Below are positions 1-64,000 of a stretch of 64,000 bases of DNA, piece by piece. Under the pieces are notes generated by a model. The model searched no databases. It saw nothing but the letters and a program-made list of their open reading frames with translations, and was not told where the DNA came from. The stretch is from a virus: IMG/VR virus record IMGVR_UViG_641228504_000001. One strand, 5' to 3'. A program made the translations under genes and the position numbers. Positions within the stretch are counted from its first letter, which is position 1. Each line of letters begins with the position of its first letter.

Positions 1-425
1 ATGGCCCGCGGGCCTCGAGGTTCGCCGTCCTCGAGTAACTCCACGACCATGCCGTCGGATACGACAAGGCCGAGCAGCTGCGCCAGATCCGCCCCGGACC
101 GTGCGGCCTGCAGGGTCCACCCGGAGGGCAACCCTTCCTGATCTTCAGCGGTGGCTAGACCCATAATCGTCGTGCCGGCAAGCTCCTTGATCGTCACGGA
201 CGTAGCACCGTCGGCGAGGCGGTTCGGGGCAAGCGTGGTGACGAGGCTACCGAGGCGCACCTCGGTGAAACCCCACGAGGTGTGGCCGCGGGAGACAGGC
301 CGTTTAAGGGTGGCGTCTTCGAGGCGTCCGAGCAGGGTGAGGAACCGGTCAAGCACCGCGAGCGCGCGCCGCGCATCTGCCGATCCCTCCGGACCCGGCA
401 GCGTGACCCGCAGTTCCGTGCTCAT
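1..425 (-). CDS. Hypothetical protein, truncated at window edge (MSTELRVTLPGPEGSADARR...)
   Basis: ATG at 425; I translated it manually and it stays open to position 3. Absent from the ORF track because it has no stop in the window. Confidence 0.55.
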   Translation of the reverse strand, partial: MSTELRVTLPGPEGSADARRALAVLDRFLTLLGRLEDATLKRPVSRGHTSWGFTEVRLGSLVTTLAPNRLADGATSVTIKELAGTTIMGLATAEDQEGLPSGWTLQAARSGADLAQLLGLVVSDGMVVELLEDGEPRGPRA

Positions 426-520
426 ACCACCCACCATGTCACAGTCGTCCGACCCGGGGTACCGGCATAACGGCCTACTGTGCCCCGAGGTCACGCGCAG
501 CTCGGAGCGGAAAAACGACA

Positions 521-550
521 GCCCCGCCTGGCCTCACGGCCGGGCGGGGC
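521..550. terminator. Intrinsic terminator hairpin
   Basis: GCCCCGCCTGGCC-TCAC-GGCCGGGCGGGGC after the small-ORF operon; homolog at 9533-9568. Confidence 0.7.
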
Positions 551-608
551 GCTTCGTCGTGTCTGGGGTCAGCGAAGCACAACGCCCCACATGGACCAAC
601 GGCCGGAC

Positions 609-827
609 TCAGGCCCGACCCCGCCGCCGCGGTCGACGTCGACCCGGCCCACACCCCGGCTCCTGACACCCGCAGTACCCACCCGCAAGCCGTAGTAGCT
701 CCTGGTCCCCGGCGCACTGGTGCGTCTTCACCACGATCCCGGGGGCGCAACCCAGGCAGCGCAGCGCCGGATCGACGGCCGGTCCTGGGGGCGGCGCCGG
801 CGGGCTGTCGCCGGTCGCTCCGGTCAC
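609..827 (-). CDS. Small Cys-rich protein (CLGC..HQC..CGC..C), 72 aa
   Basis: GTG overlaps upstream TGA (GTGA); homolog of 9276-9515. Confidence 0.5.
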   Translation of the reverse strand: MTGATGDSPPAPPPGPAVDPALRCLGCAPGIVVKTHQCAGDQELLRLAGGYCGCQEPGCGPGRRRPRRRGRA

Positions 828-943
828 CAGTGACCTTCGTTCAGCCGGTCCGGATCCGGCGGAGGGTTGGGCGGACCATCCTTCCGGATCCGTTGGGGTA
901 GCGGTGGTGGTGGCGGATTGCAACGCCAGGACCGGACACGCAT
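824..943 (-). CDS. Pro-rich microprotein, 39 aa (MRVRSWRCNPPPPPLPQRIRK...HW)
   Basis: AGGGGA RBS 9 nt upstream; GTGA coupling to next ORF; homolog 9142-9279 differs by synonymous changes and an in-frame indel. Confidence 0.5.
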   Translation of the reverse strand: MRVRSWRCNPPPPPLPQRIRKDGPPNPPPDPDRLNEGHW

Positions 944-996
944 GACAGGACATCCCCTTCCAGTTATCGGACGAGTGAGGGTCGTGGCAGTCGGGC

Positions 997-1227
997 TTAC
1001 TGCCGACCCAGGACGTGCTCAGGTGGCGCCCAATCGCCCTGACCCACCGAGGTCAGGTAGTCGTAGGCGTAGCCGGTGGGCCTGCAGGGCCACTCGGATC
1101 CGCACATCGGGCATCGGTCCACACGTGGCCAGTGTTCGACGATGATCCTGCGGGCGGACCGGATCATCCGGTTGCGTAGCTGCGCTGGCGACAGGCCAAT
1201 CGGAGTAGGCCGGACGTGGGCGGCCAT
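997..1227 (-). CDS. Small protein with CPxC..WPC putative Zn-binding motif, 76 aa
   Basis: Conserved with 8864-9097; start overlaps upstream stop. Confidence 0.65.
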   Translation of the reverse strand: MAAHVRPTPIGLSPAQLRNRMIRSARRIIVEHWPRVDRCPMCGSEWPCRPTGYAYDYLTSVGQGDWAPPEHVLGRQ

Positions 1228-1409
1228 CACCGGGAGCAGGCCCGCTGCCGGGCCAACCGGGTCATCAACGGCCGCGTATCCAGGATCACCGTCGGCTGGT
1301 CGCGCAGCGGCCGGTAGGCACCGGCCCGCCCGGCGTACACGGTGGCGGGACCGGTGGCGTCCAGCCGCGCGGAACGACGGCGTCGGCGTTGGCGGAACAG
1401 CCGGAACAT
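1227..1409 (-). CDS. Arg-rich microprotein, 60 aa (MFRLFRQRRRRR...)
   Basis: GGAGG RBS; near-identical homolog at 8688-8867. Confidence 0.6.
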   Translation of the reverse strand: MFRLFRQRRRRRSARLDATGPATVYAGRAGAYRPLRDQPTVILDTRPLMTRLARQRACSR

Positions 1410-1559
1410 GCGCTGCGCACCTCCTACGAGTCGGAGTGCCGCCCGGCCAGGCATCGGGGGAAGCCAGCCAGGCGACACACACGCAACGTAGGTGCGGCGA
1501 AGGCGCACAGTAGCCACGAAGTGTGGTGGTACCCCGCGGTGTGGTACCCGCTTGTCAGA

Positions 1560-2768
1560 TCAGGCGACCCCGACCTGATCGGCCAGACTCCGAAGCTCTG
1601 GCCGGGTCGTCGGAGTCTCCCGAGCCAGAAGCTCTCGCAGCAACGCCCGCATAGTCAGGCTTAGCCGGGAATCCTCGGGTGACTCCTGGTGTGCGCGGCT
1701 CAACATGAGCGAGGCGGCCACGTCGTCGCGTTGCGTGGCGTACCCACGCGCCAGGTGCAGCAGGTGCGAGTGCCGGCGCTCGATGCTCGGCGATCCAGTC
1801 ACGTCGACCCGCTCGCCCAACTTGAGCGCCTCACCATGCCGCGACAGCTCCAGCGCCACCGCAGCCCGGTGAATCCCGACGTTGATCGGGCCGAAAAACA
1901 GCCAGTGGTGAGACGTTTCCCCGACGACGGCAGCGAGCTTTTCCGCCTCGCTCAGGACCACTGTGGTGTCCCGGTCGTTGTGCAGCCGAGCCGCCTGCAC
2001 AGACAGCAGCAGATTGAGCCCGCCGAGGACAGACAGCCGCACCGGGTCCTGGTCATCGATTGCGCGTAGCTCAGCGATAGCGGACCGGCATAGCTCAGCG
2101 GACTCCTCCGCGTGGCCGCGCATCGACAGCGCCTGGCCGAGGTTCCACGCCCCGGCGCCGCGGTAGATCGGATCGTCGGCGTCACGTGCAGCGGCCAGCG
2201 CCCGATCGGCGGCCACGAGCGCCACGTCATGTGCGCCGATGCGCTTGGCGTAGGAGCGCACCAGGAGATACAGGTCGGCGGAGATCCGCAGCGCGTCACG
2301 CCGTGAGTCGCCGTCGGTGCTGGCGACGGCAGCGGTAACGGCCTGGACGAGGCCGGGCAGGGCAGGGCCGGTGTAGGTGTAACGCTGCCGCGACTGGTGC
2401 CATGTCGTCCACGCCAACCGCACCGCGGCGCGTAGCTCGGGCAGCGGCATCAGCTCGACCTCTGGCGGGCCGTAGGCGTGGATGGCGGCGCGGAGCGGTC
2501 CCACTAACTCGTGGTCCACCGGGTCATCCGGGAGATGACCGACGGGGAGTCCGGTGATGCGGTACAGGTCGCGTACCCGCAGGATACGAGCGATGTCGAC
2601 CCAGTCGGAGAGGGTATTAACGGATCGTTCCCCTGACTCCCACTTACGCCAGGCGGAAACGGTGACGCCCTTGAGTTGGGCACATACTTCTTGTGTCAGG
2701 CCGGCTCGGCGGCGGTAGAGCTTGATGCGTTGGCCGGGGGTCATCCCCGGCTCGATGACGGGGTCCAT
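1560..2768 (-). CDS. XRE-family HTH regulator with helical TPR-like C-terminal region, 402 aa
   Basis: N-terminal HTH (GLTQE..A..GV..S.W.KWESGER); C-terminal F.P.NV..H...ALEL..R.....AR family pattern; GGAGAAGG RBS. Confidence 0.85.
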   Translation of the reverse strand: MDPVIEPGMTPGQRIKLYRRRAGLTQEVCAQLKGVTVSAWRKWESGERSVNTLSDWVDIARILRVRDLYRITGLPVGHLPDDPVDHELVGPLRAAIHAYGPPEVELMPLPELRAAVRLAWTTWHQSRQRYTYTGPALPGLVQAVTAAVASTDGDSRRDALRISADLYLLVRSYAKRIGAHDVALVAADRALAAARDADDPIYRGAGAWNLGQALSMRGHAEESAELCRSAIAELRAIDDQDPVRLSVLGGLNLLLSVQAARLHNDRDTTVVLSEAEKLAAVVGETSHHWLFFGPINVGIHRAAVALELSRHGEALKLGERVDVTGSPSIERRHSHLLHLARGYATQRDDVAASLMLSRAHQESPEDSRLSLTMRALLRELLARETPTTRPELRSLADQVGVA

Positions 2769-3021
2769 AGCCTTCTCCAGGTAGAGGACTGGGCGGCGGG
2801 CCGCCAGCCTCTACCCCGGCGGGCCGCCACAGTCGACGGTACTCCCCGCCCACCAGGTCACGCCGTCAGTAACAGACCGTGTTGTATTGTGGATACCTCG
2901 CGCGCAATAACACGGCCCCGCAATTCTGGCTAGCCTTCAAACCGGTCATTGCTCCGGCCGGAGATACGTGTCGGACATTTAACAAGACACAGAAGACGCG
3001 AATCCCATTCGTGGATATTGC

Positions 3022-3049
3022 TTGTCGATTATCAATCTGGTACTAAACT
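3022..3049 (+). promoter_or_regulatory. Putative housekeeping-sigma promoter TTGTCG-N16-TAAACT
   Basis: In the AT-rich intergenic block; identical in inverted orientation in the prophage homolog. Confidence 0.4.
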
Positions 3050-3222
3050 TGATCCGGCCAAGTGATCATCCGGTGACGGGCCGTCACAACCCAACGTGAC
3101 CCGTTGCGCACCATCACCCCACCCCCGCCCACGACACGCGGCGAGAAGTCTTCCCATTTCATTCGTACACGTGTTCTACTCGCACGCTCCGTTAGGCACC
3201 CGAGGAGGTCATCCACTCCGCC

Positions 3223-3831
3223 ATGCGCAGCCAGCCCACCCGCCACCCATCCCCACCCCTACGCGCCGCGATCTACGGACCCACGCGGCAGATCGGACGC
3301 TGGCAGCCAACCTGCACCGCCTGGTGCACAGACCGCGGCTACGACCTGACGTCCATCGTCGACGAAGACGCCGCCGCCACCCGCTGGAGCGACCTGCTCG
3401 TCATGATGGCCGACGGCGACGTCGACGTGGTCGTGGTGGCCACCCTTGCGGACCTGCCGCCAAAAAGGATGGCCAGAGTCGAGACCATCAACCGGGGGCA
3501 GCCAGCGCGACGGCCAGGACTACGCGCCGTGGTCTACGGCCCGCCCTGGGACGTCAAACGGTGGGGGCGCCGGGGCATGAAGTGGTGTCAGCAGGCGGAG
3601 CTGGACGTTCGCCGCCTCATCGTCGAGACGCCCGCCGCGAGCGAGTGGCCCGGCGTGGTCGAGGGAATGGCCGACGGAACGGTCGACGTGGTGGTGATGG
3701 GCAGTTGGGGTCATCTACCCCCGCATCGCCTGCCACGAATCGAGGTAGCAGGCACCACACCGGCAGGGCTACTGCAACCCCGCCTGGCCCGCTGGTACCC
3801 GATTACAGGTCACTTGCGTCCGTCCGGATAG
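3223..3831 (+). CDS. Protein with two tandem degenerate resolvase-like (serine recombinase fold) domains, 202 aa
   Basis: Internal duplication RAAIYGP...MADGDVDVVVV / RAVVYGP...MADGTVDVVVM; YxRVS catalytic motif absent. Confidence 0.7.
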   Translation: MRSQPTRHPSPPLRAAIYGPTRQIGRWQPTCTAWCTDRGYDLTSIVDEDAAATRWSDLLVMMADGDVDVVVVATLADLPPKRMARVETINRGQPARRPGLRAVVYGPPWDVKRWGRRGMKWCQQAELDVRRLIVETPAASEWPGVVEGMADGTVDVVVMGSWGHLPPHRLPRIEVAGTTPAGLLQPRLARWYPITGHLRPSG

Positions 3832-4098
3832 GACCCTCGGTGGTCGGAGGATGCGGACTATCGGTCAAAGACCCGCTTGACTGGTGCAGGCCTTTTGATC
3901 TAGTAGCACTTTCGGTCACCTCGAACAATACCCAACCGCCAGTTTTACGCACGGTCACTAGAAATGATCGCCGAGTCGGAGTCTGATCAGAGGCCCACCC
4001 CGAAACGCAGAGGCTGGTGGGGATCGAATGGGGAGGGAATAGCTGTGGAGGACCGCAAGCGCGTCACTCACAGTAAGAGCAATGTAGCGCACACCTGT

Positions 4099-4482
4099 GT
4101 GACGGTCGCAGCCATCGCCGGACTCATCCTCTGCGCGAGGTCCCTCCGCCGCACCCTCCAGACCGTCGAGGCTGAAGTCTCAGCCATGCGAACGGACTTT
4201 ACCGACGTGCTGACCATCGCCGATGCTGACGCCGAGCTGCGCCAGCGACGCAACGGCACGTACGTCGGCGCCGACGTCACTCCACTCGTACCAGCGGTTA
4301 GAAGCGGTCCGCCTGGGAGACCCGCCGAGCGGCCCGCTGCGCCCGCTCAACCTGCGCCGACCGGCCATACCGGCGAGGCATCTCCGCCGAGGACCAACCG
4401 AACAGTGCCATCGCGTCGCCCTCGGAACCGCCGGCGTCAGCCCACAGGTGCGCGGCGAGGTGCCGCAGCTTATGAGGGTTGA
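4099..4482 (+). CDS. Hypothetical protein with hydrophobic N-terminus; 3' part overlaps recombinase antisense
   Basis: GTG after the conserved leader; true end uncertain. Confidence 0.35.
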   Translation: MTVAAIAGLILCARSLRRTLQTVEAEVSAMRTDFTDVLTIADADAELRQRRNGTYVGADVTPLVPAVRSGPPGRPAERPAAPAQPAPTGHTGEASPPRTNRTVPSRRPRNRRRQPTGARRGAAAYEG

Positions 4483-5188
4483 TCTTCGGGATCTTCGCCT
4501 CCTCGCAACGGCGTTCCAGCATCTGATACGCACCGGAAGACGTGAGCGCCCCTCCCCGCTCGGCCAGCCACAGCGCCTCAAGTCTGCCCGCATCTCGGTG
4601 CTTGGACCTCACGCGTAGGTAACGATCGATTGCCTGCCCCGTCTTCGCACCGAAGGGCACAGAACGAATCTTGTCGCCCTTGCCATGAAGGGTGACAAGG
4701 TCGTGGCGCATGTCCAGGGCGTCGAGGGTGATACCCACCATCTCTGAGACCCTGGGGGACCCCGCCTCACACCACAACCGGATCATCGCTGTATCGCGAC
4801 GCTCGGTAAAGCCTTTGCCGCCGCATGCCTTAAGCAGCAGCGCCATATGGTCAGCGGGGACAATGGGGATGGGTTTGCTGGTGACAGCGGGCTCGGCGAT
4901 CCGGGCCATCGGGTTACTGTCGACGATCTCCTCCACCTCGCACCACCGATAGAACGCTCGTAGGTTGCGAAACTTCTTGTGCACCGTGGCGCTGGAGTTG
5001 CCGATCTCCTGAGCATCGATTAGGAACTCCTCCACGTCGACGCGAGTAACCTCAGCCAGGTCACGCCCGGAGCAGAACCCGGCGAGTTGGCGCAGGGTGG
5101 TGACGTAGCTGTCGACGGTCTCGGGAGAGGTACGGCGGGCGCGGTGGTACCGCTCATAGGAGGCGATGTGCGTCTCGTTGGCATCCAT
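4298..5188 (-). CDS. Tyrosine recombinase/integrase (XerC-like), 296 aa
   Basis: Catalytic R (PRVSEM), K (GKGDK), HKLRH, GW (Trp for His), Y (RRYG); N-terminal core-binding domain. Confidence 0.92.
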   Translation of the reverse strand: MDANETHIASYERYHRARRTSPETVDSYVTTLRQLAGFCSGRDLAEVTRVDVEEFLIDAQEIGNSSATVHKKFRNLRAFYRWCEVEEIVDSNPMARIAEPAVTSKPIPIVPADHMALLLKACGGKGFTERRDTAMIRLWCEAGSPRVSEMVGITLDALDMRHDLVTLHGKGDKIRSVPFGAKTGQAIDRYLRVRSKHRDAGRLEALWLAERGGALTSSGAYQMLERRCEEAKIPKINPHKLRHLAAHLWADAGGSEGDAMALFGWSSAEMPRRYGRSAQVERAQRAARRVSQADRF

Positions 5189-5297
5189 GGCGGGGCCTCC
5201 CTGGTCGCTACAGCGCTAAGTCAGGGAGGAAAGAATACTCTCCTCCACCATCGCTGTGGCGACCCCCGCCGCCCGATTCGATCTCTATTTGTGCTGG

Positions 5298-5474: not shown

Positions 5475-5876
5475 CTACGTCACGTCGCCCAGCAGCCTCC
5501 GCGCGATCGCCCGTGCCGCCGCGATCACCTCCGGCGTCAGACCAACGCCACCCGTCGGCAGCCCCGCCACTCCCCTCCCCGCCTCGAACCCTCGCGCCAA
5601 TGCCTCATCAACGGCGCGCTGCTGCTCAGCATGAGCAGTTACGGTCGCGGCAGCCACACCACGTAGGTACGCCTGTTCCACCTCCCGCGCATGGTGGTCC
5701 TCGTCCGCCTCGCGGCAGCGCCGAACTTCGCCTCGGAGCCACTGATTCTCCTGCCTGAGTCGCTGATTTGTCGCGGCTGCCCTCGATCCGCGTTGGTAGA
5801 TGGCGGCGGCAGCGTGTGCGGCGCGGACAATCAATGGCACGGTGGGCGGGCGCCGGCGTCGAGCTATCAGCTCCAC
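5475..5876 (-). CDS. Hypothetical coiled-coil protein
   Basis: GTG start after the conserved leader; Ala/Arg/Glu-rich. Confidence 0.55.
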   Translation of the reverse strand: MELIARRRRPPTVPLIVRAAHAAAAIYQRGSRAAATNQRLRQENQWLRGEVRRCREADEDHHAREVEQAYLRGVAAATVTAHAEQQRAVDEALARGFEAGRGVAGLPTGGVGLTPEVIAAARAIARRLLGDVT

Positions 5877-6176
5877 GAATCCCCATGTGTGTGCAACAGT
5901 GGTCTTACTGCGAGTGACGCGCTTACGCTTCACCACAGCTATTCCCTCCCCATTCGGTCCCCCCACCAGCCTCTGCGTTTCGGGGTGGGCCTCTGATCAG
6001 ACTCCGACTCGGCGATCATTTCTAGTGACCGTGCGTAAAACTGCCGGTTGGGATGTCGCCGCGCATGACCGAAAGTGCTACTAGAACAACGGGCTCGCAC
6101 GGCACAACCCCTGTTTGAGCGAAAGCGGCATCCCATAGCCGGCTATCTGTCCTGACAGGACGGCAGCACATCGCCA

Positions 6177-6767
6177 CTACTGGGCCGGGTACCAGTCCAC
6201 CGCACGGGGCTGCAGCAGTCCCGGCAGCGTTGCGCCTGCCACCTCTACTCGTGGGAGACGGTGCGGGGGTAGGTGGCCCCAGCTGCCCATCACCACCAGC
6301 TGGACCTCATCGGCGGCCATCATTCGGACCACGCCTGGCCACTCGTGCGCGTCGGGTGTCTCGACCACGAGGTCGCGCACGGTCAGGCCGGCGCGGTCTG
6401 CCCATGTCAGGCCCCGACGTCTCCACAGCTCCACATCCCAGGGTGGGACGTAGACGAGCGTGCGCAGCCCGCGTCCATGGCGCACTGGCTGCCGCCGGCC
6501 GATGGTCTCGACCCGCGCCATGCGGTCGGCTGGTAGGTCAGCCAGGCTGGCTACCACGACGATGTCGATGTCGCCGTCGGCCATCATGACGAGCAGATCA
6601 CCCCACCGGGTGGCGTCGGGGGTCTCGTCGATGACGGACACCAGTTCGTAGCCGCATTCCGTGGACCAGGCGGTGCAGGTTGGCTGCCAGCGTCCGATCT
6701 GCCGCGTGGGTCCGTAGATCGCGGCGCGTAGGGGTGGGGATGGGTGGCGGGTGGGCTGGCTTCGCAT
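6177..6767 (-). CDS. Tandem degenerate resolvase-like domain protein, 196 aa
   Basis: Homolog of 3223-3831. Confidence 0.7.
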   Translation of the reverse strand: MRSQPTRHPSPPLRAAIYGPTRQIGRWQPTCTAWSTECGYELVSVIDETPDATRWGDLLVMMADGDIDIVVVASLADLPADRMARVETIGRRQPVRHGRGLRTLVYVPPWDVELWRRRGLTWADRAGLTVRDLVVETPDAHEWPGVVRMMAADEVQLVVMGSWGHLPPHRLPRVEVAGATLPGLLQPRAVDWYPAQ

Positions 6768-7349
6768 GGCGGAGTGGATGACCTCCTCGGATGCCTGGCG
6801 GGAGCGTGCGAGTAGAACACATGTACGAATGAAATGGGAAGAGTTCTCCCGGTGTGTCGTGGGCGGGGGTGGGGTGGTGGTGCGCAACGGGTCACGTTGG
6901 GTTGTGACGGCCCGTCACCGGATGATCACTTGGCCGGATCAAGTTTAGTACCAGATTGATAATCGACAAGCAATATCCACGAATGGGATTCGCATGATCC
7001 GTGTCTTGTTAAATGTCCGACACGTATCTCCGGTCGACGGCGTGACCGATTTAGAGGCTAGCCAGAATTGCTGCCTCATGTTATTGCGCGCGAAGTATCC
7101 ACAATACAACACGGTCTGTTACTGACGGCGTGACGTGGTGGGCGGGGAGTACCGTCGACTGTGGCGGCCTGCCGGGGGTCGATGCCGGCGGCAGCGCCTG
7201 GATCGGGGCGACAAAGTAGGGGCCGGATGTGCGGTCCGACCCCTTGCGCGCCCCGCCACGGTAGCAGGAGACATCGACGCGACGTACTGTGCCAATGGAC
7301 GCCGGTTTCGTGCGGGAACCGGCACTTCACCCTCGTGCGGGAGGGCACC

Positions 7350-9279: not shown

Positions 9280-9515
9280 CCGGGACAACCGGCGACAGCC
9301 CGCCGGCGCCGCCCCCAGGACCGGCCGTCGATCCGGCGCTGCGCTGCCTGGGTTGCGCCCCCGGGATCGTGGTCAAGACGCACCAGTGCGCCGGGGACCA
9401 GGAACTACTACGGCCTGCCGGTGGGTACTGCGGCTGCCAGGAACCGGGGTGTGGGCCGGGTCGACGTCGGCCACAGCGGCGTCGCCGGCTGAGTCCGGCC
9501 GCTGACGAACTCTGA
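9276..9515 (+). CDS. Small Cys-rich protein, 79 aa
   Basis: GTGA overlap; homolog 609-827. Confidence 0.5.
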   Translation: MTGTTGDSPPAPPPGPAVDPALRCLGCAPGIVVKTHQCAGDQELLRPAGGYCGCQEPGCGPGRRRPQRRRRLSPAADEL

Positions 9516-9532
9516 CCGACCGCAGACACGAC

Positions 9533-9568
9533 AACGCCCCGCCCGGCCGTGAGGCCAGGCGGGGCGTT
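9533..9568. terminator. Bidirectional terminator hairpin
   Basis: 16-bp stem with one mismatch and GTGA loop, between the + operon and mini-array 1. Confidence 0.75.
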
Positions 9569-9572
9569 TGTG

Positions 9573-9645
9573 CGACCCAACCCCACATACGTGGGGAGCA
9601 TGTCGCGAAGCGACAGTGGGTCATCCCCGCCTATGCGGGGACCAA
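9573..9645 (-). CRISPR. Mini-array 1: two type I-E-like 29-nt repeats with a 15-nt spacer
   Basis: TTGGT-CCCCGC-ATAG-GCGGGG-ATGACCCA / CTGTCGCTTCGCGAC / ATGCT-CCCCAC-GTAT-GTGGGG-TTGGGTCG; 5+6+4+6+8 geometry; first repeat 19/29 identical to the E. coli I-E repeat. Confidence 0.75.
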
Positions 9646-9652
9646 TGAACGG

Positions 9653-9681
9653 AGCGTACCCCCAAGCGTCTCGGCTGTCAG
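9653..9681 (-). promoter_or_regulatory. Putative promoter of mini-array 1, CTGACA-N17-TACGCT
   Basis: Predicted TSS near 9646, at the first base of the upstream repeat. Confidence 0.6.
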
Positions 9682-9728
9682 GCCCCGCCGGGGGCGGGTC
9701 GTTGTGGCAGGTCCGCACCACAGCCGTT

Positions 9729-9769
9729 CTATAGCATGCTTGACGTGTAGCTATAGCAGGCTATAGGCT
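9729..9769 (+). promoter_or_regulatory. Promoter TTGACG-N18-TAGGCT with three CTATAG palindromic operator candidates
   Basis: CTATAG at 9729, 9751 and 9761, overlapping the -35/-10 region. Confidence 0.6.
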
Positions 9770-9797
9770 GTTGGTATCCGAGCCACAGGAGGAAGCG

Positions 9798-10202
9798 ATG
9801 ACCACCGGAACCAGCATCGACGATCTCGCCCGGACCCTCGCCGACCATCACGGCATTGACACCCACGCTGCTGCCGTCGACACGGTGCGGGTGCATGTGG
9901 ATGAGATTCGCGACGACCCGGAGCTGTGGGACACCGCGACCCGAACCCTCACTTCGGCCGGCGTCGAGGTGATCACCCGTGCAGTTGACGCGTCGTACAG
10001 TGTCGGAGCCGTCGCCACAGCGGCTGCGCAGGTGCTGGTGGAGCTGGAAGAGGTGACCAGCGAGATCGGCCGCCTGACCGCCCGCCGCGAAGTGCTGGTG
10101 CGGACGGCAATGCGGCGGCATGAGCTGCGGCGAGACGATATCGCCGCAGCCGCCGGCGTGACGCCCGCCCGGCTCTACCAGATCCGCGACGGACGCCGCT
10201 GA
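9798..10202 (+). CDS. Two-domain protein: unknown N-terminus plus C-terminal HTH, 134 aa
   Basis: AGGAGG RBS; RDDIAAAAGVTPARLYQI HTH. Confidence 0.8.
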   Translation: MTTGTSIDDLARTLADHHGIDTHAAAVDTVRVHVDEIRDDPELWDTATRTLTSAGVEVITRAVDASYSVGAVATAAAQVLVELEEVTSEIGRLTARREVLVRTAMRRHELRRDDIAAAAGVTPARLYQIRDGRR

Positions 10203-10243
10203 GCCACTCATCACGTAAACAACTACACCTTAGGGTTCAGATT

Positions 10244-10675
10244 ATGGGTGACAAGATTATGGACAACAAATTCGACATCGAAGACGCCTCCGGTCGCCTA
10301 GGTGAGCTGGTTTGGGCTGCGGGGGAAGGGACGGACATTATCCTCACTCGCGATGGTGTACCTGCCGCCCGTCTGACGGCCACCGAAACCGAATATCTAG
10401 ACGGTGACGAGTACGAGAAACTCCTCCGGGATATCCATCTGTACAGCCGCGCGATGGCCGCGTTCGCGGTGGCTGAACATCCCAGCGGATACGACTTCGC
10501 GCGGGTCATCAACGCCCTCTGGCAGCGCATCCGTTTCAAGCTAGATGAGGTTGCGGCGGTGCCCCCTGGGGAGGTTCGCGAGCCGTTCGCCGACGAGGCC
10601 CGGGGTGTCCGGGAGGTGGCCCGTGCGGACGCCGAGGCAATCGCGGCTAGGCCATCAGCGCGGTGGGCCGACTGA
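10244..10675 (+). CDS. Phd/YefM antitoxin-like domain fused to unknown C-terminal domain, 143 aa
   Basis: IEDASGRLGELVWAAGEGTDIILTRDGVPAARL matches the Phd/YefM pattern; TAGGGT -10 lies 7 nt before ATG (leaderless). Confidence 0.7.
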   Translation: MGDKIMDNKFDIEDASGRLGELVWAAGEGTDIILTRDGVPAARLTATETEYLDGDEYEKLLRDIHLYSRAMAAFAVAEHPSGYDFARVINALWQRIRFKLDEVAAVPPGEVREPFADEARGVREVARADAEAIAARPSARWAD

Positions 10676-10682
10676 ACACAGA

Positions 10683-10719
10683 GACAGCCAGACCCCCGAC
10701 ATTCGGGGGTCTGGCTGTC
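10683..10719. terminator. Perfect 17-bp bidirectional hairpin
   Basis: GACAGCCAGACCCCCGA-CAT-TCGGGGGTCTGGCTGTC. Confidence 0.85.
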
Positions 10720-10720
10720 A

Positions 10721-10808
10721 CGATTAACCCACATGCATGGAGAGGTGTCTCCTATAGGAGACGGTATCCGGCCTACGACCGTGACACCTCCACATACGTG
10801 GAGAGGTG
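10721..10808 (-). CRISPR. Mini-array 2: I-E-like 29-nt repeat, 32-nt spacer, degenerate 27-nt repeat
   Basis: CACCT-CTCCAC-GTAT-GTGGAG-GTGTCACG / GTCGTAGGCCGGATACCGTCTCCTATAGGAGA / CACCTCTCCATGCATGTGGGTTAATCG. Confidence 0.75.
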
Positions 10809-10832
10809 GTGCTTCGGCCGTGGTAGCAGTTG

Positions 10833-10851
10833 CCTGCCCCATCGGGGCAGG
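10833..10851 (-). terminator. Hairpin downstream of holin
   Basis: CCTGCCCC-ATC-GGGGCAGG. Confidence 0.5.
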
Positions 10852-10868
10852 GGCGACATGCTCCGACC

Positions 10869-11123
10869 CTACCGCCCCGACACCTCGTACTTCGGCGCGG
10901 CCGGCGTGCCGAGTAGGACGCCCAGCCGTGGCCAGCGTGCCTCGGCCACCCGGACGAGGGCGTAGTAGCCGGCCATCGCCAGCGCCATCACGCCCACGGT
11001 GAGTGCGGTGGACGAGTCGGCGTCGATGACGATGCCCGCCGTCGAGGCCAGCCAGGCGAGCAGGGCGCCGACGGCGGCGGGGACCGCGGTGCGGATCAGG
11101 CTGATCAGGTAGTCGTGGGTCAT
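10869..11123 (-). CDS. Holin, 84 aa
   Basis: Two hydrophobic segments; IRT.VP..VG..L.WL and E.RWP.LG.LLG patterns; lies in the lysis cassette. Confidence 0.75.
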   Translation of the reverse strand: MTHDYLISLIRTAVPAAVGALLAWLASTAGIVIDADSSTALTVGVMALAMAGYYALVRVAEARWPRLGVLLGTPAAPKYEVSGR

Positions 11124-12102: not shown

Positions 12103-12921
12103 TTATCGAATCGGGTTTCGGAATGCGGCGTCCCACGTCTTACGGCCCAGCAGCCCATCCCGGGTGAGGCCCTGGTCCGCCTGGAACGCCTTGATCAGCG
12201 CCTGGTATTCCGGCCCGTACAGGCCATCGGCGCCGGCCTTGCGCAGGTAGCGGCGGCCCTTGCCCGCCGGCCAGCCGCGGCGGACAAGCTGCCTGGTCCA
12301 GGCGGTCAGCCATTGCCGGTCGGCCTTGCCCCGGAAGCGGCGACGGTAGTAGCCGGACACGGACCGGTTACCACGCTCGCGTGGGCCGAAGTAGTGCCCG
12401 GCCGGGAGCGGGAACGCCACCGCGGGCCTGGGCGCCGGCCGTGGCGGCACCGGTGCCGGCGTGCCGAGCTGGTCGAGTCGCCAGTCCGTACCCCGCACCG
12501 TGTCCGCAGCCTGGGTGAACTCCGACGTCACATGGCAGTGCCCGGTGTGCCGGTTCGACCCGGTGTAGGTGCGGGTGGTGAAGTCGTACCGGCGGTGCCA
12601 GATGCGGCCGTTGAAGATGATGTACCGCACCCACCACAAGGAACCGGTGCGGGCCAGTGTCACCCACAGTTGCACGACCTGCTCCATCGTGACGCCGTCC
12701 GGGTCGTTCAGGTCGGCGTCGAAGTCCCGGGCGCGTACCTCGTCGGCCGGGTCGCCGTCGCGGTGTTCGGGTCGGCCGGTCCGGTCCGGGTTGTGCGACG
12801 ACGGGTAGCCCTGGTGGGCGGTGTCGCCGATCGAACCGTCCGACCTTGTGTCGCGCCCCGGGAACCGCTGGTTGAGCTGATCGCGCGCTTCATTCAGATT
12901 CGGTACTACCGTCCACGTCAT
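12103..12921 (-). CDS. Endolysin (N-terminal peptidase-like catalytic domain, C-terminal peptidoglycan-binding domain)
   Basis: S.HNPD, RARDFD, YIIFNGRIW, H..H.HV motifs; DGLYG..A.KAFQ..DG.LG..TW binding domain. Confidence 0.88.
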   Translation of the reverse strand: MTWTVVPNLNEARDQLNQRFPGRDTRSDGSIGDTAHQGYPSSHNPDRTGRPEHRDGDPADEVRARDFDADLNDPDGVTMEQVVQLWVTLARTGSLWWVRYIIFNGRIWHRRYDFTTRTYTGSNRHTGHCHVTSEFTQAADTVRGTDWRLDQLGTPAPVPPRPAPRPAVAFPLPAGHYFGPRERGNRSVSGYYRRRFRGKADRQWLTAWTRQLVRRGWPAGKGRRYLRKAGADGLYGPEYQALIKAFQADQGLTRDGLLGRKTWDAAFRNPIR

Positions 12922-35208: not shown

Positions 35209-35480
35209 CGCCCCGCCCCCTCACGGCCGGCGAGCCGCTCCCGCGCGGCCACCAGACCCACCCGCAGCCGCTGGGAGGTGCTGATCGCCTGGTCCCGGTC
35301 GGCGCAGGCCTGCCGCAGGTCGGCGGACAGACCGCGGGCCAGGTCCCGCCACTGGGCGGCCTGCCGGGTCCGCCGCTCATAGGCGGCCGTCGTGGTGTCC
35401 AGCTCGTCCTTCAGGCGGGCCCGCTCGGCATCCGCCTTATCCAGCTCGGCGGTCAGCTCCCGCACCATGTCGTCAGTCAT
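35205..35480 (-). CDS. Coiled-coil hypothetical, 91 aa
   Basis: ATG overlaps the pentapeptide gene stop. Confidence 0.55.
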   Translation of the reverse strand: MTDDMVRELTAELDKADAERARLKDELDTTTAAYERRTRQAAQWRDLARGLSADLRQACADRDQAISTSQRLRVGLVAARERLAGREGAGR

Positions 35481-36100
35481 CACAGGTCCGCGCCCCACAG
35501 ATTCGCGTCCGTCAGGTCCGCGTCCGTCAGGTCCGCGTCCGTCAGGTCCGCGCCCGTCAGGTCCGCGCCCGACAGGCCCGCGCCCCGCAGATTTGCGCCC
35601 CGCAGATTTGCGCCCGACAGGTCCGCGTCCCACAGGCCCGCGCCCCGCAGATTTGCGCCCGACAGGTCCGCGCCCCGCAGATTTGCGCCCCACAGGTCCG
35701 CGTCCCGCAGGTTCGCGCCGCAGCCGTGCTCACGGACCAGACGCGCGCCATCCACGATGTCCACGACGTACGCCCGCCTCAGCCGCCACGTATCCCCGCA
35801 GGCGTCGGAGAGCAGGTCAGCGGTCGACCACGCGCACAGCAGCAGAGTCACCGCCGGCACACAGCCGGAGGCCATCGCCCTCCAGGTCCGCGCCAGACAG
35901 ATTCCGTCCCCGGGTGAGGTCGGGGACTCGCTGGTGTTGTCGGTGTCGATCGGCCCCGGCGCGTGAGCCCACTGGCTGGGCCCAGGCCACCGGTACGCGT
36001 GCTGCGAGCGCAGATCGGCGGTGACGGTGCGGATCCCCCACCGGTCGCAGCCGGCAGGCAGAGCGCGGTCGGCAGTCAGGACATCAAGCAAGCTCTTCAC
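35480..36100 (-). CDS. Pentapeptide-repeat protein with N-terminal domain, 206 aa
   Basis: C-terminal run of A(D/N/G)Lxx repeats; GTG overlaps upstream TGA. Confidence 0.85.
35482..35720. repeat. Imperfect 15-bp tandem repeats encoding pentapeptides
   Basis: e.g. CAGGTCCGCGTCCGT tandem copies. Confidence 0.85.
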
Positions 36101-38614: not shown

Positions 38615-39049
38615 GTGGCAGCATCCCCATCCCCTACACCGTCACCCGAGGTCGCGCGAGCGCGCTTCGCAGCCTTCGTCGCCCGTGCTCTGGCATCCGC
38701 AGGCGACCGCGGCATGACCAACAAAGACATCGCGAAGGCAACAGGGGTAGGACCGTCCACGTTCCACCGGTGGCGTCGCGGCGAGGGACGCGAACTACCA
38801 GAGATCGAGAAGGTAAGGGCATTTTGCGCCGGCCTCGGCATCTCCCCCGCCGGTGCGCTCGCCGCACTCGGACTCGATCCCTCTCGCGACGACCCCGAGC
38901 CCGAGCCACCGCTACCACCCGAGGTCCGACAGATCCTCCGGACGCTGGCCGACCCCAACGTCTCGGAGGCAGACAAGCTCGTACTACAGGAGATGCTCAA
39001 GATGCTTGCCGACCGCGCAGACCGCGCCGGACGAGGCAGGGCACCCTAA
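38615..39049 (+). CDS. Immunity repressor (XRE HTH), probably leaderless, 144 aa
   Basis: GMTNKDIAKATGVGPSTFHRW; TACGGT -10 lies 6 nt before GTG; coupled to integrase. Confidence 0.8.
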   Translation: MAASPSPTPSPEVARARFAAFVARALASAGDRGMTNKDIAKATGVGPSTFHRWRRGEGRELPEIEKVRAFCAGLGISPAGALAALGLDPSRDDPEPEPPLPPEVRQILRTLADPNVSEADKLVLQEMLKMLADRADRAGRGRAP

Positions 39050-40386
39050 TGCCCCGCCGCCGGTATCCCACCATTAGCAAAGGCAGTGACGGGTGGTTTC
39101 ATGCCTGGGTCACGGTGGGCACGAAGAGCAACGGGCGGCCCGATCAGCGGCACATCAAACGGGCCACGGTAGAGCAGGTAGAGACACGGATAGACGAGCT
39201 ACTAGAGCAGGCCCGCACTGCTACGGTCCCGCGCGGCGGTCGCGGACCCACCGTTAACACCTGGCTGATCAGTACCTATCTGGAGACAATCGCCCCCGGA
39301 AAGATTGATCCAACGACCGTCCAGGGCTACCGGAGTAAGGTCACAAATTACGTTGTGCCAGTTATTGGTGCCCTTCGGATGGATCGCGTAATAGCTGATA
39401 ACATCGATGCCGTTTACACAGAGATGCGGCGTCGAGGTCTCGCTGATGCCACGGTACTACAGGTCCACCGTATTCTTTCCCGCGCATGGAAAGTTGCCGC
39501 TCGGCGACGTGTTGTGCCACGAAACATCATGCTCGATGTCGACCCGCCAAGTGCAAAGCGTCAAGAGATGGAACCGCTCACGGAAGACGAGGCTAAGGCG
39601 ACGCTGGCGGCAGCCCACCGACGCCGCAACTCGGCCCGCTGGTCCGTCGGGTTCGCGGTTGGCACCCGCCAGGGTGAGGCGCTCGGCCTACGTTGGCCGC
39701 ACCTCCTCGTAGAGTGCGACGACTGCGGGGCAACGGTGAAGTTGGCGGACTGGTGGGCCGGGCAACTGGTGCAGTGCCGAGGCTGCAACTCGGTGAATGT
39801 CGGCGCCGTCGCCCGGATCTGGTGGCAGCTTCACCGGCGAGCGCACGAACACGGCTGCGCTCCTCAGGCCCCATGGCCTTGTGGTCGACGTCGTGGCGGC
39901 AACTGCCCAAACAAACGACTGGTCCTGCGATCGGGCGAGATTCACGTCGGCGGCGGACTGATTCTTAAGGAACCCAAGGGAAAGAGCAAGCGGACCATTC
40001 CGATCCCGCAGGAACTTGTCGATAGCCTCCGAGCGCACTACGAAGTGCAGAACTTGGAGCGAATGGTGGCTGAGGCTGCATACGCCTCGCATGGCTTCGT
40101 CTTCGCCGACCAGCTCGGCGGCCCGATCGACCCAGCCGAAGACTGGCGGGAGTGGAAGACCCTAATCGCGGATGCCGGCGTACGGGACGCTCGGGTGCAT
40201 GACGGCCGGCATACTGCGGCAACGCTGCTTCTCGCTCAGGGAGTCGACATCCGGGTGGTCCAGGAGCTGCTTGGGCACTCCTCGATCAAGGTCACCGAGG
40301 GATACACCCACGTCGCCTCGAAGCTGGCCCGGGACGCTACGGAGCGTATGGGAAAGCGGCTGTTCGGAACGCCAGGTACACCCTGA
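39049..40386 (+). CDS. int: Phage tyrosine integrase with Cys-rich insertions, 445 aa
   Basis: GTRQGEALGL, EPK, HDGRH, LLGH, Y; arm-binding N-terminus; TAATG overlap. Confidence 0.95.
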   Translation: MPRRRYPTISKGSDGWFHAWVTVGTKSNGRPDQRHIKRATVEQVETRIDELLEQARTATVPRGGRGPTVNTWLISTYLETIAPGKIDPTTVQGYRSKVTNYVVPVIGALRMDRVIADNIDAVYTEMRRRGLADATVLQVHRILSRAWKVAARRRVVPRNIMLDVDPPSAKRQEMEPLTEDEAKATLAAAHRRRNSARWSVGFAVGTRQGEALGLRWPHLLVECDDCGATVKLADWWAGQLVQCRGCNSVNVGAVARIWWQLHRRAHEHGCAPQAPWPCGRRRGGNCPNKRLVLRSGEIHVGGGLILKEPKGKSKRTIPIPQELVDSLRAHYEVQNLERMVAEAAYASHGFVFADQLGGPIDPAEDWREWKTLIADAGVRDARVHDGRHTAATLLLAQGVDIRVVQELLGHSSIKVTEGYTHVASKLARDATERMGKRLFGTPGTP

Positions 40387-44771: not shown

Positions 44772-44923
44772 TGAACGGAGCGTACCCCCAAGCGTCTCGG
44801 CTGTCAGGCCCCGCCGGGGGCGGGTCGTTGTGGCAGGTCCGCACCACAGCCGTTCTATAGCATGCTTGACGTGTAGCTATAGCAGGCTATAGGCTGTTGG
44901 TATCCGAGCCACAGGAGGAAGCG

Positions 44924-45328
44924 ATGACCACCGGAACCAGCATCGACGATCTCGCCCGGACCCTCGCCGACCATCACGGCATTGACACCCACGCTGCTGC
45001 CGTCGACACGGTGCGGGTGCATGTGGATGAGATTCGCGACGACCCGGAGCTGTGGGACACCGCGACCCGAACCCTCACTTCGGCCGGCGTCGAGGTGATC
45101 ACCCGTGCAGTTGACGCGTCGTACAGTGTCGGAGCCGTCGCCACAGCGGCTGCGCAGGTGCTGGTGGAGCTGGAAGAGGTGACCAGCGAGATCGGCCGCC
45201 TGACCGCCCGCCGCGAAGTGCTGGTGCGGACGGCAATGCGGCGGCATGAGCTGCGGCGAGACGATATCGCCGCAGCCGCCGGCGTGACGCCCGCCCGGCT
45301 CTACCAGATCCGCGACGGACGCCGCTGA
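44924..45328 (+). CDS. C-terminal HTH protein (copy 2)
   Basis: Copy of 9798-10202. Confidence 0.8.
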   Translation: MTTGTSIDDLARTLADHHGIDTHAAAVDTVRVHVDEIRDDPELWDTATRTLTSAGVEVITRAVDASYSVGAVATAAAQVLVELEEVTSEIGRLTARREVLVRTAMRRHELRRDDIAAAAGVTPARLYQIRDGRR

Positions 45329-63431: not shown

Positions 63432-64000
63432 TGGTCGCTCCTCAGGTGGGCGGCGGGTTGAGATCCACTGTGAGCGGTTGGGAGGGCGCCACCCACGCCC
63501 ACACTCGCGCCGGGGTCTCCAGGCGACCGTGTGTGGCTCTCAGCGGGCTCGGTGGTGTCCTGCTCGCGGCCGGTGGCGGGGGTGCTGTGGTCTGGGCAGA
63601 GCACCGTGAGGCCGCGGAGGCGCATCCAGCCGCGGTCCTGTGGGCCGACGTCTGCGCGGTAGGTGCGCGGGCACCCCGGGTAGACGCAGCGGCGGATCAG
63701 GGTCTCCGCGGTGCCTTCCGACGCGTGGGCTTCGGCGGTGGTGATGAGGGCGACCAGGTGGCGGGCGATGCCGTCGTACTCGTCGGTGACGGCGGTGGCG
63801 TAGTAGGCGTCCCAGCGGTCATGCCAGCCCTCCAGGAGGTCACGGATGACCTCCACGCGGTCGTCGTCGGTGCGGGCGGCGGTGAACTCCGCCGTGGAGT
63901 GGTCGAGGAACGCCTGCATGCCGATTGGGGGGTATGTGGTGTCGTGGTCCCGCTCGGGGCCTACGCGGGCCTGTGCGTGGCTCTCAGCGGGCGGCACGGC
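63428..64000 (-). CDS. Hypothetical mosaic protein, 5' end outside window (copy 2)
   Basis: Partial copy of 28302-29186. Confidence 0.6.
   Translation of the reverse strand, partial: AVPPAESHAQARVGPERDHDTTYPPIGMQAFLDHSTAEFTAARTDDDRVEVIRDLLEGWHDRWDAYYATAVTDEYDGIARHLVALITTAEAHASEGTAETLIRRCVYPGCPRTYRADVGPQDRGWMRLRGLTVLCPDHSTPATGREQDTTEPAESHTRSPGDPGASVGVGGALPTAHSGSQPAAHLRSDQ

Follow-up and report, generated by a model that had tools for sequence, protein, structure and literature searches.

A family of actinobacterial coiled-coil and HTH regulators with a conserved double operator that probably limits its own expression in prophage accessory regions

To our knowledge, few anti-defence loci are known from Actinobacteria; elsewhere, Acr discovery has depended on a conserved regulator to anchor the search. 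The Aca proteins (Aca1-Aca14) are small HTH proteins of mobile elements with inverted repeats inside their own promoters, and are linked to variable small cargo genes. AcrIIA1 of Listeria prophages joins an autorepressing HTH to an anti-Cas9 domain, and the controller (C) proteins of R-M systems are XRE-type (HTH_3) regulators with two tandem palindromes 5' of their own gene and a downstream cargo gene under their control. Some Aca proteins regulate a second adjacent operon (10.64898/2026.07.27.740549), and CasPR, a DNA-binding Acr that silences cas genes, possesses CapR and AP2 domains and has its sites inside cas genes (10.64898/2026.02.23.707548). The locus described here is closest in its regulatory logic to the Aca proteins, and also resembles AcrIIA1-type fusions and R-M controller proteins.

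The DNA that was analysed, a stretch of 64,000 nucleotides referred to as the window, is actinobacterial DNA with a GC content of 68%. Positions 1-5297 are flanking sequence and are followed by a prophage of 35,126 bp in two head-to-tail copies with 100% identity (5298-40423, and 40424 to the window end at 64000), which may represent a true tandem lysogen or assembly from a circular or concatemeric form. The HTH locus at 9729-10202 is accordingly present a second time at 44855-45328 on the plus strand, at an offset of 35,126 and with 100% identity from 5298 on. The 5' edge of each prophage copy is a tRNA 3'-end-like core (TGGTGGGGCGGGCGGGACTTGAACCC), and no intact tRNA was called by ARAGORN. 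The prophage encodes a tyrosine integrase (38770-40386), a KilAC/Bro antirepressor, and a lysin with a PG_binding_1 domain (12103-12921). The HTH locus sits in an accessory region, with the left attachment site on one side and the end of the leftward lysis cassette on the other, within a hypervariable prophage island that also bears type I-E-like mini-arrays. Elsewhere in the prophage, imperfect 15-bp tandem repeats (CGCGCCCGACAGGTC-like) at ~35480-35660 lie within a coding region and suggest a pentapeptide-type repeat protein.

The regulator is a protein of 134 aa encoded on the plus strand from ATG 9798 to the stop at 10202, and homologs share its start residue. A Shine-Dalgarno sequence, AGGAGG (9787-9792, plus strand), lies 5 nt 5' of the ATG. 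The in-frame TTG at 9771 was rejected as a start, given that homologs begin at ATG 9798 and that the -10 would put the transcript start after 9771, at a predicted ~9775-9777. An AlphaFold (AF2) model based on 20 homologs (mean pLDDT 89.6) predicts three helices and a beta hairpin in residues 1-70, a single long helix of 32 residues at 75-106, and an HTH at 112-130 (helices 112-119 and 123-130), with the protein ending in ARLYQIRDGRR. The N-domain (residues 1-72) is acidic, with a pI of 4.5 and a net charge of -8, and the C-module (residues ~73-134) is basic, with a pI of 11. The first-pass annotation had described an unassigned N-terminus and a C-terminal HTH, and this division is upheld by AF2 and phrog_686, with an N-domain of ~72 aa. 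The match to phrog_686 ('HTH DNA binding protein') covers residues 69-132 (E 4.9e-6), and phrog_8615 also matches the C-module (E 3.8e-5), but these actinophage HTH families lack the acidic N-domain and have no described operator or function. The fold of the C-module resembles that of ~60-aa HTH proteins from mycobacteriophages and Arthrobacter phages, with target-normalised TM-scores of ~0.7-0.85 in BFVD. No family was matched in searches of Pfam, NCBIfam, PADLOC, and PDB sequence profiles: Pfam gives TetR_N and HTH_28 alone, at E ~0.1, with no link to Aca-type Pfam families and no match to HTH_3 or HTH_31. Foldseek against the PDB returned no match under E 1e-3, the ESM Atlas gave no usable lead when searched by shape or by features, and the phage GenBank collection contained no match to the HTH protein and only trivial DNA matches.

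Upstream of the gene, CTATAG occurs at 9729-9734, 9751-9756, and 9761-9766, with a fourth occurrence at 10752-10757. As the first-pass annotation had reported, the first three of these cores overlap a promoter that consists of TTGACG (9740-9745), N18 spacing, and TAGGCT (9764-9769). These cores resolve into two sites on the plus strand, the putative operators O1 and O2. O1 (9729-9744) has CTATAGC as its left half and a right half that is turned into the -35 (TATAGCATGCTTGA, 9730-9743), leaving 2 mismatches to TATAGCNNGCTATA; L005, L006, L007, and L033 carry TATAGCGCGCTTGAC at the place of O1. O2 (9751-9766) is a 16-bp palindrome, CTATAGC-AG-GCTATAG, that lies over the -10 with 0 mismatches, the CTATAG cores at 9751 and 9761 being its two halves, and it is found in all aligned promoters. 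TTGAC is kept at the -35 position in 8 independent loci, and a -10 of the TAnnnT type is present at an equal offset in all aligned promoters, where its variants include TAGACT, TAGGAT, TAGAGT, TACGGT, and TATGAT. The position of the -35 and TAnnnT -10 is kept over 12 independent loci, although an E. coli-type promoter scan misses the promoter. TATAGC and GCTATA, the two half-sites, are confined to 9730-9765 in the 35-kb prophage. A literature search on the operator core returned unrelated primers only and no paper on the motif. A further operator-core-like sequence, CATAGCCGGCTATC at 6134-6147, contains a perfect inner palindrome, ATAGC-CG-GCTAT; it lies between the leftward accessory genes at 6177-6887 and 5475-5966 with no obvious adjoining promoter, and may be a chance occurrence.

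Relatives of the regulator were collected by a word-based search, which found 23 in Salinispora, Micromonospora, and metagenomes, and by an exhaustive HMM search, which found 410 clusters at E <=1e-3 and 74 at E <=1e-10. Many clusters of the HMM search are proteins of 56-80 aa that consist of the C-module alone, others have different N-terminal domains, some relatives possess an extra domain of ~75 aa N-terminal to the acidic domain, and occasionally the acidic domain lacks an HTH partner (P0090). The protein is modular, because its domains recur in varied combinations, with the acidic domain found also without the HTH. The extra domain is conserved at residues 1-75 of P0003, P0005, P0009, and P0012 (…IWQAL…NWRVRVW…) and has no family match; in the relatives that possess it, the promoter and operators precede the long form.

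The promoter alignment comprised 12 independent promoters from 11 loci (the window, L001, L003, L004, L005, L006, L007, L022 with two promoters, L033, L034, and L036), together with three close relatives; the operator design in L039, L044, L060, and L063 was seen separately, outside the alignment. The 12 independent promoters have in common two copies of T[AG]TAGCGCGCTATA with centres 21-23 bp apart, of which the upstream site usually merges into TTGAC and the downstream site has the TA of the TAnnnT -10 as its last bases. The proteins of the aligned loci are just 45-68% identical and their flanking DNA is unalignable. The design accompanies two-domain forms (window, L003-L006, L022, L044, and L063), three-domain forms (L001 and L007), and a 67-aa form with the C-module only (L034). 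It is likewise present where the HTH gene comes last in an operon, after a gene for a 107-aa zinc-ribbon protein (L033), two tiny membrane protein genes in a lower-GC phage (L036), genes for proteins of 109 aa and 85 aa (L039), or a gene for a 120-aa protein (L060). In the 12-kb flanks of the loci, sites with <=2 mismatches are confined to these promoters, and in the 5.1-Mb genome of Salinispora vitiensis the site (<=1 mismatch) occurs once, at the promoter of the homolog. Of 49 metagenome loci retrieved with the double-site pattern, ~8 are of the regulator type and most are unrelated AGCGCGCT-containing motifs; an over-specific operator pattern matched nothing in viral contigs.

Comparison of these loci thus shows a putative operator that accompanies the C-terminal module and is confined to its promoters. 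As the operator design is common to all architectures, the C-terminal coiled-coil and HTH module would be an autoregulator with a fixed operator; the comparative evidence is strong, and it is very likely that the C-module recognises the palindrome and that the unit of HTH and operator is autoregulatory. An autorepressed HTH cassette is an ordinary kind of device; the family itself is an undescribed actinobacterial one with an unusually well-defined operator. CTATAG occurs 8 times in the window against 1.9 expected, a count that 0 of 100 shuffles reach and that is inflated because the window contains two identical prophage copies, the true number of sites being 4. This doubling by the tandem copy speaks for reading the CTATAG cluster as a chance feature of an AT-richer promoter, but that reading is contradicted by the 12 positionally conserved promoters and by the genome-wide uniqueness of the site, and is almost certainly wrong.

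Three observations on individual relatives concern the promoter and its cargo. In L022, two perfect TATAGCGCGCTATA sites form part of a second promoter (5175-5215) directly 3' of the HTH gene, and the same sequence is present in L071 and L074. This second operator-bearing promoter drives a gene for a very acidic 83-aa protein and a gene for a 233-aa protein. The arrangement points to a regulon of two operons and parallels those Aca proteins that control an adjacent operon. In L018, a relative with 85% identity, an insertion at 4100-4350 that carries a small, excisionase-like HTH gene on the minus strand has taken the place of array 1, of the promoter with its two operators, and of codons 1-8 of the regulator gene; the regulator gene can therefore persist, or decay, without promoter and operators. 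The first cargo genes of L039 (755-1081, minus strand) and L060 (2626-2985, minus strand), which encode 109-120 aa, exhibit sub-threshold similarity to GNAT acetyltransferases (several GNAT Pfams, E ~0.01).

The regulator and its operators probably form a self-limiting cassette, in which the C-module binds O1 and O2 and represses its own promoter together with the cargo. Operators over a core promoter usually repress, and repression is the likely direction here because the two sites cover the -35 and the -10. The C-module, comprising the long helix and the HTH, would bind O1 over the -35 and O2 over the -10, likely as one dimer per site, and since the operator centres are 21-23 bp, or two helical turns, apart, the two dimers would occupy one face of the DNA helix. 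The promoter would fire at a low protein level; as the protein accumulates, both operators would be filled and RNA polymerase would be excluded, which would cap the regulator and the co-transcribed Phd-like gene downstream. We infer repression rather than activation, dimer binding, and the role of the cargo. More broadly, the HTH and operator unit is probably a portable self-limiting expression cassette of actinobacterial prophages and integrative elements, with a cargo that would be either fused, as are the acidic N-domain here and an additional domain in certain relatives, or co-transcribed, as are small genes 5' or 3'.

A dual switch that first activates and then represses, as in the R-M controller proteins, is also conceivable by analogy. 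Similarly to C proteins, the regulator has two tandem palindromes 5' of its gene and a downstream cargo gene that would be under its control, and leaderless transcripts are predicted in the relatives L005, L006, L034, and L044; unlike C proteins, it lacks HTH_3, and both of its sites lie over core promoter elements. Identity as an R-M controller was rejected on the lack of a match to HTH_3 or HTH_31 and of an R-M gene in the HTH operon. Identity as CasPR was rejected too, as CapR and AP2 are absent and the operator in S. vitiensis lies solely at the homolog's own promoter.

A wide VIA fold search with the N-domain returned MerR-like winged-helix domains (pSK1 Par, RacA, and CvkR) at Z 5-6.5, which is in the noise range. 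The N-domain as a MerR-like winged-helix DNA binder was rejected on these noise-level scores and on the conflict with a net charge of -8, and DNA binding by the domain is disfavoured by its acidity. The acidic N-domain is most likely an effector or a sensor that binds a protein. If it is an effector, the protein could be a fusion of the AcrIIA1 kind, with an N-domain that acts against host defence, possibly against CRISPR, in a dose limited by the fused autorepressor. Both proteins would join an autoregulatory HTH to a functionally distinct second domain, and both are encoded in accessory loci of prophages, in this case an island with CRISPR mimics. The strong acidity of the N-domain and its modularity, with extra domains fused in some relatives and the HTH absent in P0090, are consistent with such a fusion, as is the gene in S. 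vitiensis, which is monocistronic and has an operator unique in the genome, so that the protein appears to be self-regulating only. However, the domain order is the reverse of that in AcrIIA1, which was not matched in the PDB-wide profile search, and no known Acr was found in that search or among the Foldseek and VIA matches of the protein, where the weak MerR-like hits are noise. The N-domain is also conserved in elements without CRISPR-related neighbours, and the architecture equally fits any one-component regulator that joins a sensor to a DNA-binding domain. A fusion of the AcrIIA1 kind is thus judged distinctly improbable, and anti-CRISPR activity of the regulator or of its N-domain is unsupported.

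The sole co-transcribed gene in the HTH operon of the window follows after a gap of 41 nt without a terminator and encodes an acidic protein of 143 aa (10244-10675, plus strand), the probable operon cargo. Its N-terminus is weakly Phd/YefM-like (Pfam PF02604 at E 9e-4 and TIGR01552 at E 4.5e-4, both below the cut-off), and it has no PADLOC assignment and no Pfam assignment above the cut-off. With only 2 matches in 5.8 billion proteins, this Phd-like protein is a near-orphan, its gene being restricted to this phage and a single relative. A hairpin with a perfect 17-bp stem (10683-10719) is the terminator at the end of the two-gene operon. Type II antitoxins, in which a DNA-binding domain is combined with a neutralising one, are similarly autoregulated two-module proteins, and the neighbouring gene is Phd-like, but the regulator has no family match and its locus has no toxin gene; no toxin partner was found beside the Phd-like gene.

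On both sides of the operon lie mini-arrays on the minus strand whose repeats are genuinely type I-E-like. Mini-array 1 (9578-9645) consists of two type I-E-like repeat hairpins 44 nt apart that match a Salinispora host repeat in L029, and a putative promoter for it, CTGACA-N17-TACGCT (9653-9681, minus strand), was read from the sequence and is kept in L015 and L017. Mini-array 2 (10724-10805) has two repeats 61 nt apart and a spacer with the palindrome GTCTCCTATAGGAGAC, inside which the fourth CTATAG is located. The host array of S. vitiensis is built of GGATCACCCCCGCGTGTGCGGGGAGCAG with a 61-nt period, and the phage and host repeats have the CCCCGC/GCGGGG stem and its flanks in common. The mini-array repeats were not recognised by Rfam at E <=10; the terminator hairpin alone matched CRISPR-DR9, at noise level. 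The crRNA sense is the minus strand of the window, and array 1 is therefore divergent from the HTH gene, as had been proposed. Two repeat types, with a CCCCGC stem and a CCCCAC stem, make up paired mini-arrays that lie back to back at 9551-9700 in L015, 8203-8350 in L016, and 1500-1670 in L031 (S. vitiensis contig 2). Spacers are partly conserved among different prophages and so appear to be under selection.

This neighbourhood raises the question of whether the regulator is a true Aca in control of an anti-CRISPR locus, to which the crRNA-like mini-arrays on either side would belong. It has the HTH domain of an Aca (AF2; phrog_686, E 4.9e-6) and inverted repeats, putatively its binding sites, in its own promoter. 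Its gene has a genuine type I-E-like mini-array on either side within an accessory island of the prophage, array 1 still adjoins it in the close relatives L015 and L017, several family members come last in operons of small genes, similarly to acr-aca operons, and control of neighbouring operons is established for Aca proteins (10.64898/2026.07.27.740549). Against this, the gene is first in its operon, and alone in some relatives, whereas aca genes lie downstream of acr; the HTH is C-terminal, behind a long helix; and no known acr gene was recognised in the operon. Neither array has an operator (<=3 mismatches) or a half-site, these being confined to 9730-9765 within 9400-11000, and the end of O1 is ~48 bp upstream of the putative array-1 -35. 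L016 has lost array 1 and its promoter but retains the HTH promoter and operators, and the arrays of L015 and L017 occupy differing positions in the island. The fourth CTATAG, which the first-pass annotation had noted in the array-2 spacer, belongs to a separate palindrome, GTCTCC-TATA-GGAGAC, and in the homologous spacer of L015 (GTCTCCATAGGAGAC) the palindrome is GTCTCC-ATA-GGAGAC (CCATAGG), without the CTATAG core. No array-like periodic repeats were found near ~25 more distant loci. Because the arrays move independently of the gene and are absent at distant loci, the link to CRISPR mimics is limited to one Salinispora prophage lineage. From the Aca-like reading, autoregulation through the operators stands, with their conservation in 12 promoters, whereas control of the neighbouring CRISPR-mimic RNAs is unsupported and, as far as the DNA indicates, wrong, which corrects the earlier idea. 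A true Aca in the full sense is accordingly quite unlikely.

A wider reading is that in Actinobacteria the coiled-coil and HTH module with TATAGC-N2-GCTATA operators plays the part of Aca, as a portable marker of anti-defence cargo in prophages of Micromonosporaceae and other actinobacteria, alongside type I-E crRNA mimics. This reading is tentative and on balance unlikely. Were it true, the fused N-domain and the co-transcribed small genes would be new anti-defence proteins, and the candidate cargo would comprise the Phd-like orphan and, in other loci, the GNAT-like, zinc-ribbon, and acidic 83-aa proteins. Apart from this reading, an unannotated regulator family of ~400 sequence clusters is now defined with an exact putative operator and promoter design. 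The protein motif and the DNA motif together provide a two-part search key for accessory cargo of actinobacterial prophages and integrative elements, and the promoter may offer a compact autoregulated element for the genetics of Micromonospora and Salinispora.

The position of the HTH gene is constant in all related Salinispora prophages and its neighbours are variable, which would also be in keeping with a regulator of the phage life cycle (Cro-like, an antirepressor, or a late activator), as would the presence of an XRE-type regulator 1.3 kb upstream. However, the operator is absent elsewhere in the prophage, which therefore offers no other direct targets, the gene is situated past the end of the lysis cassette, far from the integrase and antirepressor end, and relatives also occur in conjugative-element-like contexts with FtsK/SpdB genes. 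A life-cycle role is thus highly improbable. By these comparisons, the HTH gene marks a fixed point at the border of a variable island in one Salinispora prophage lineage. The hypervariable stretch from the HTH stop to the lysis cassette measures ~40 bp in S. vitiensis, ~670 bp in the window, ~0.95 kb in L018, at least 2.8 kb in L016, and ~4.1 kb in L015. Upstream of the locus, a GC-rich hairpin terminator (9533-9568) with an inverted repeat of 16 nt that is 94% complementary ends the upstream genes. Copies of this hairpin were found by blastn in L015 (5396-5453 and 7383-7435), L016 (5396-5453), and L017 (1346-1398); the shared hairpin follows the HTH gene and island genes, and looks like a junction for cassette exchange.
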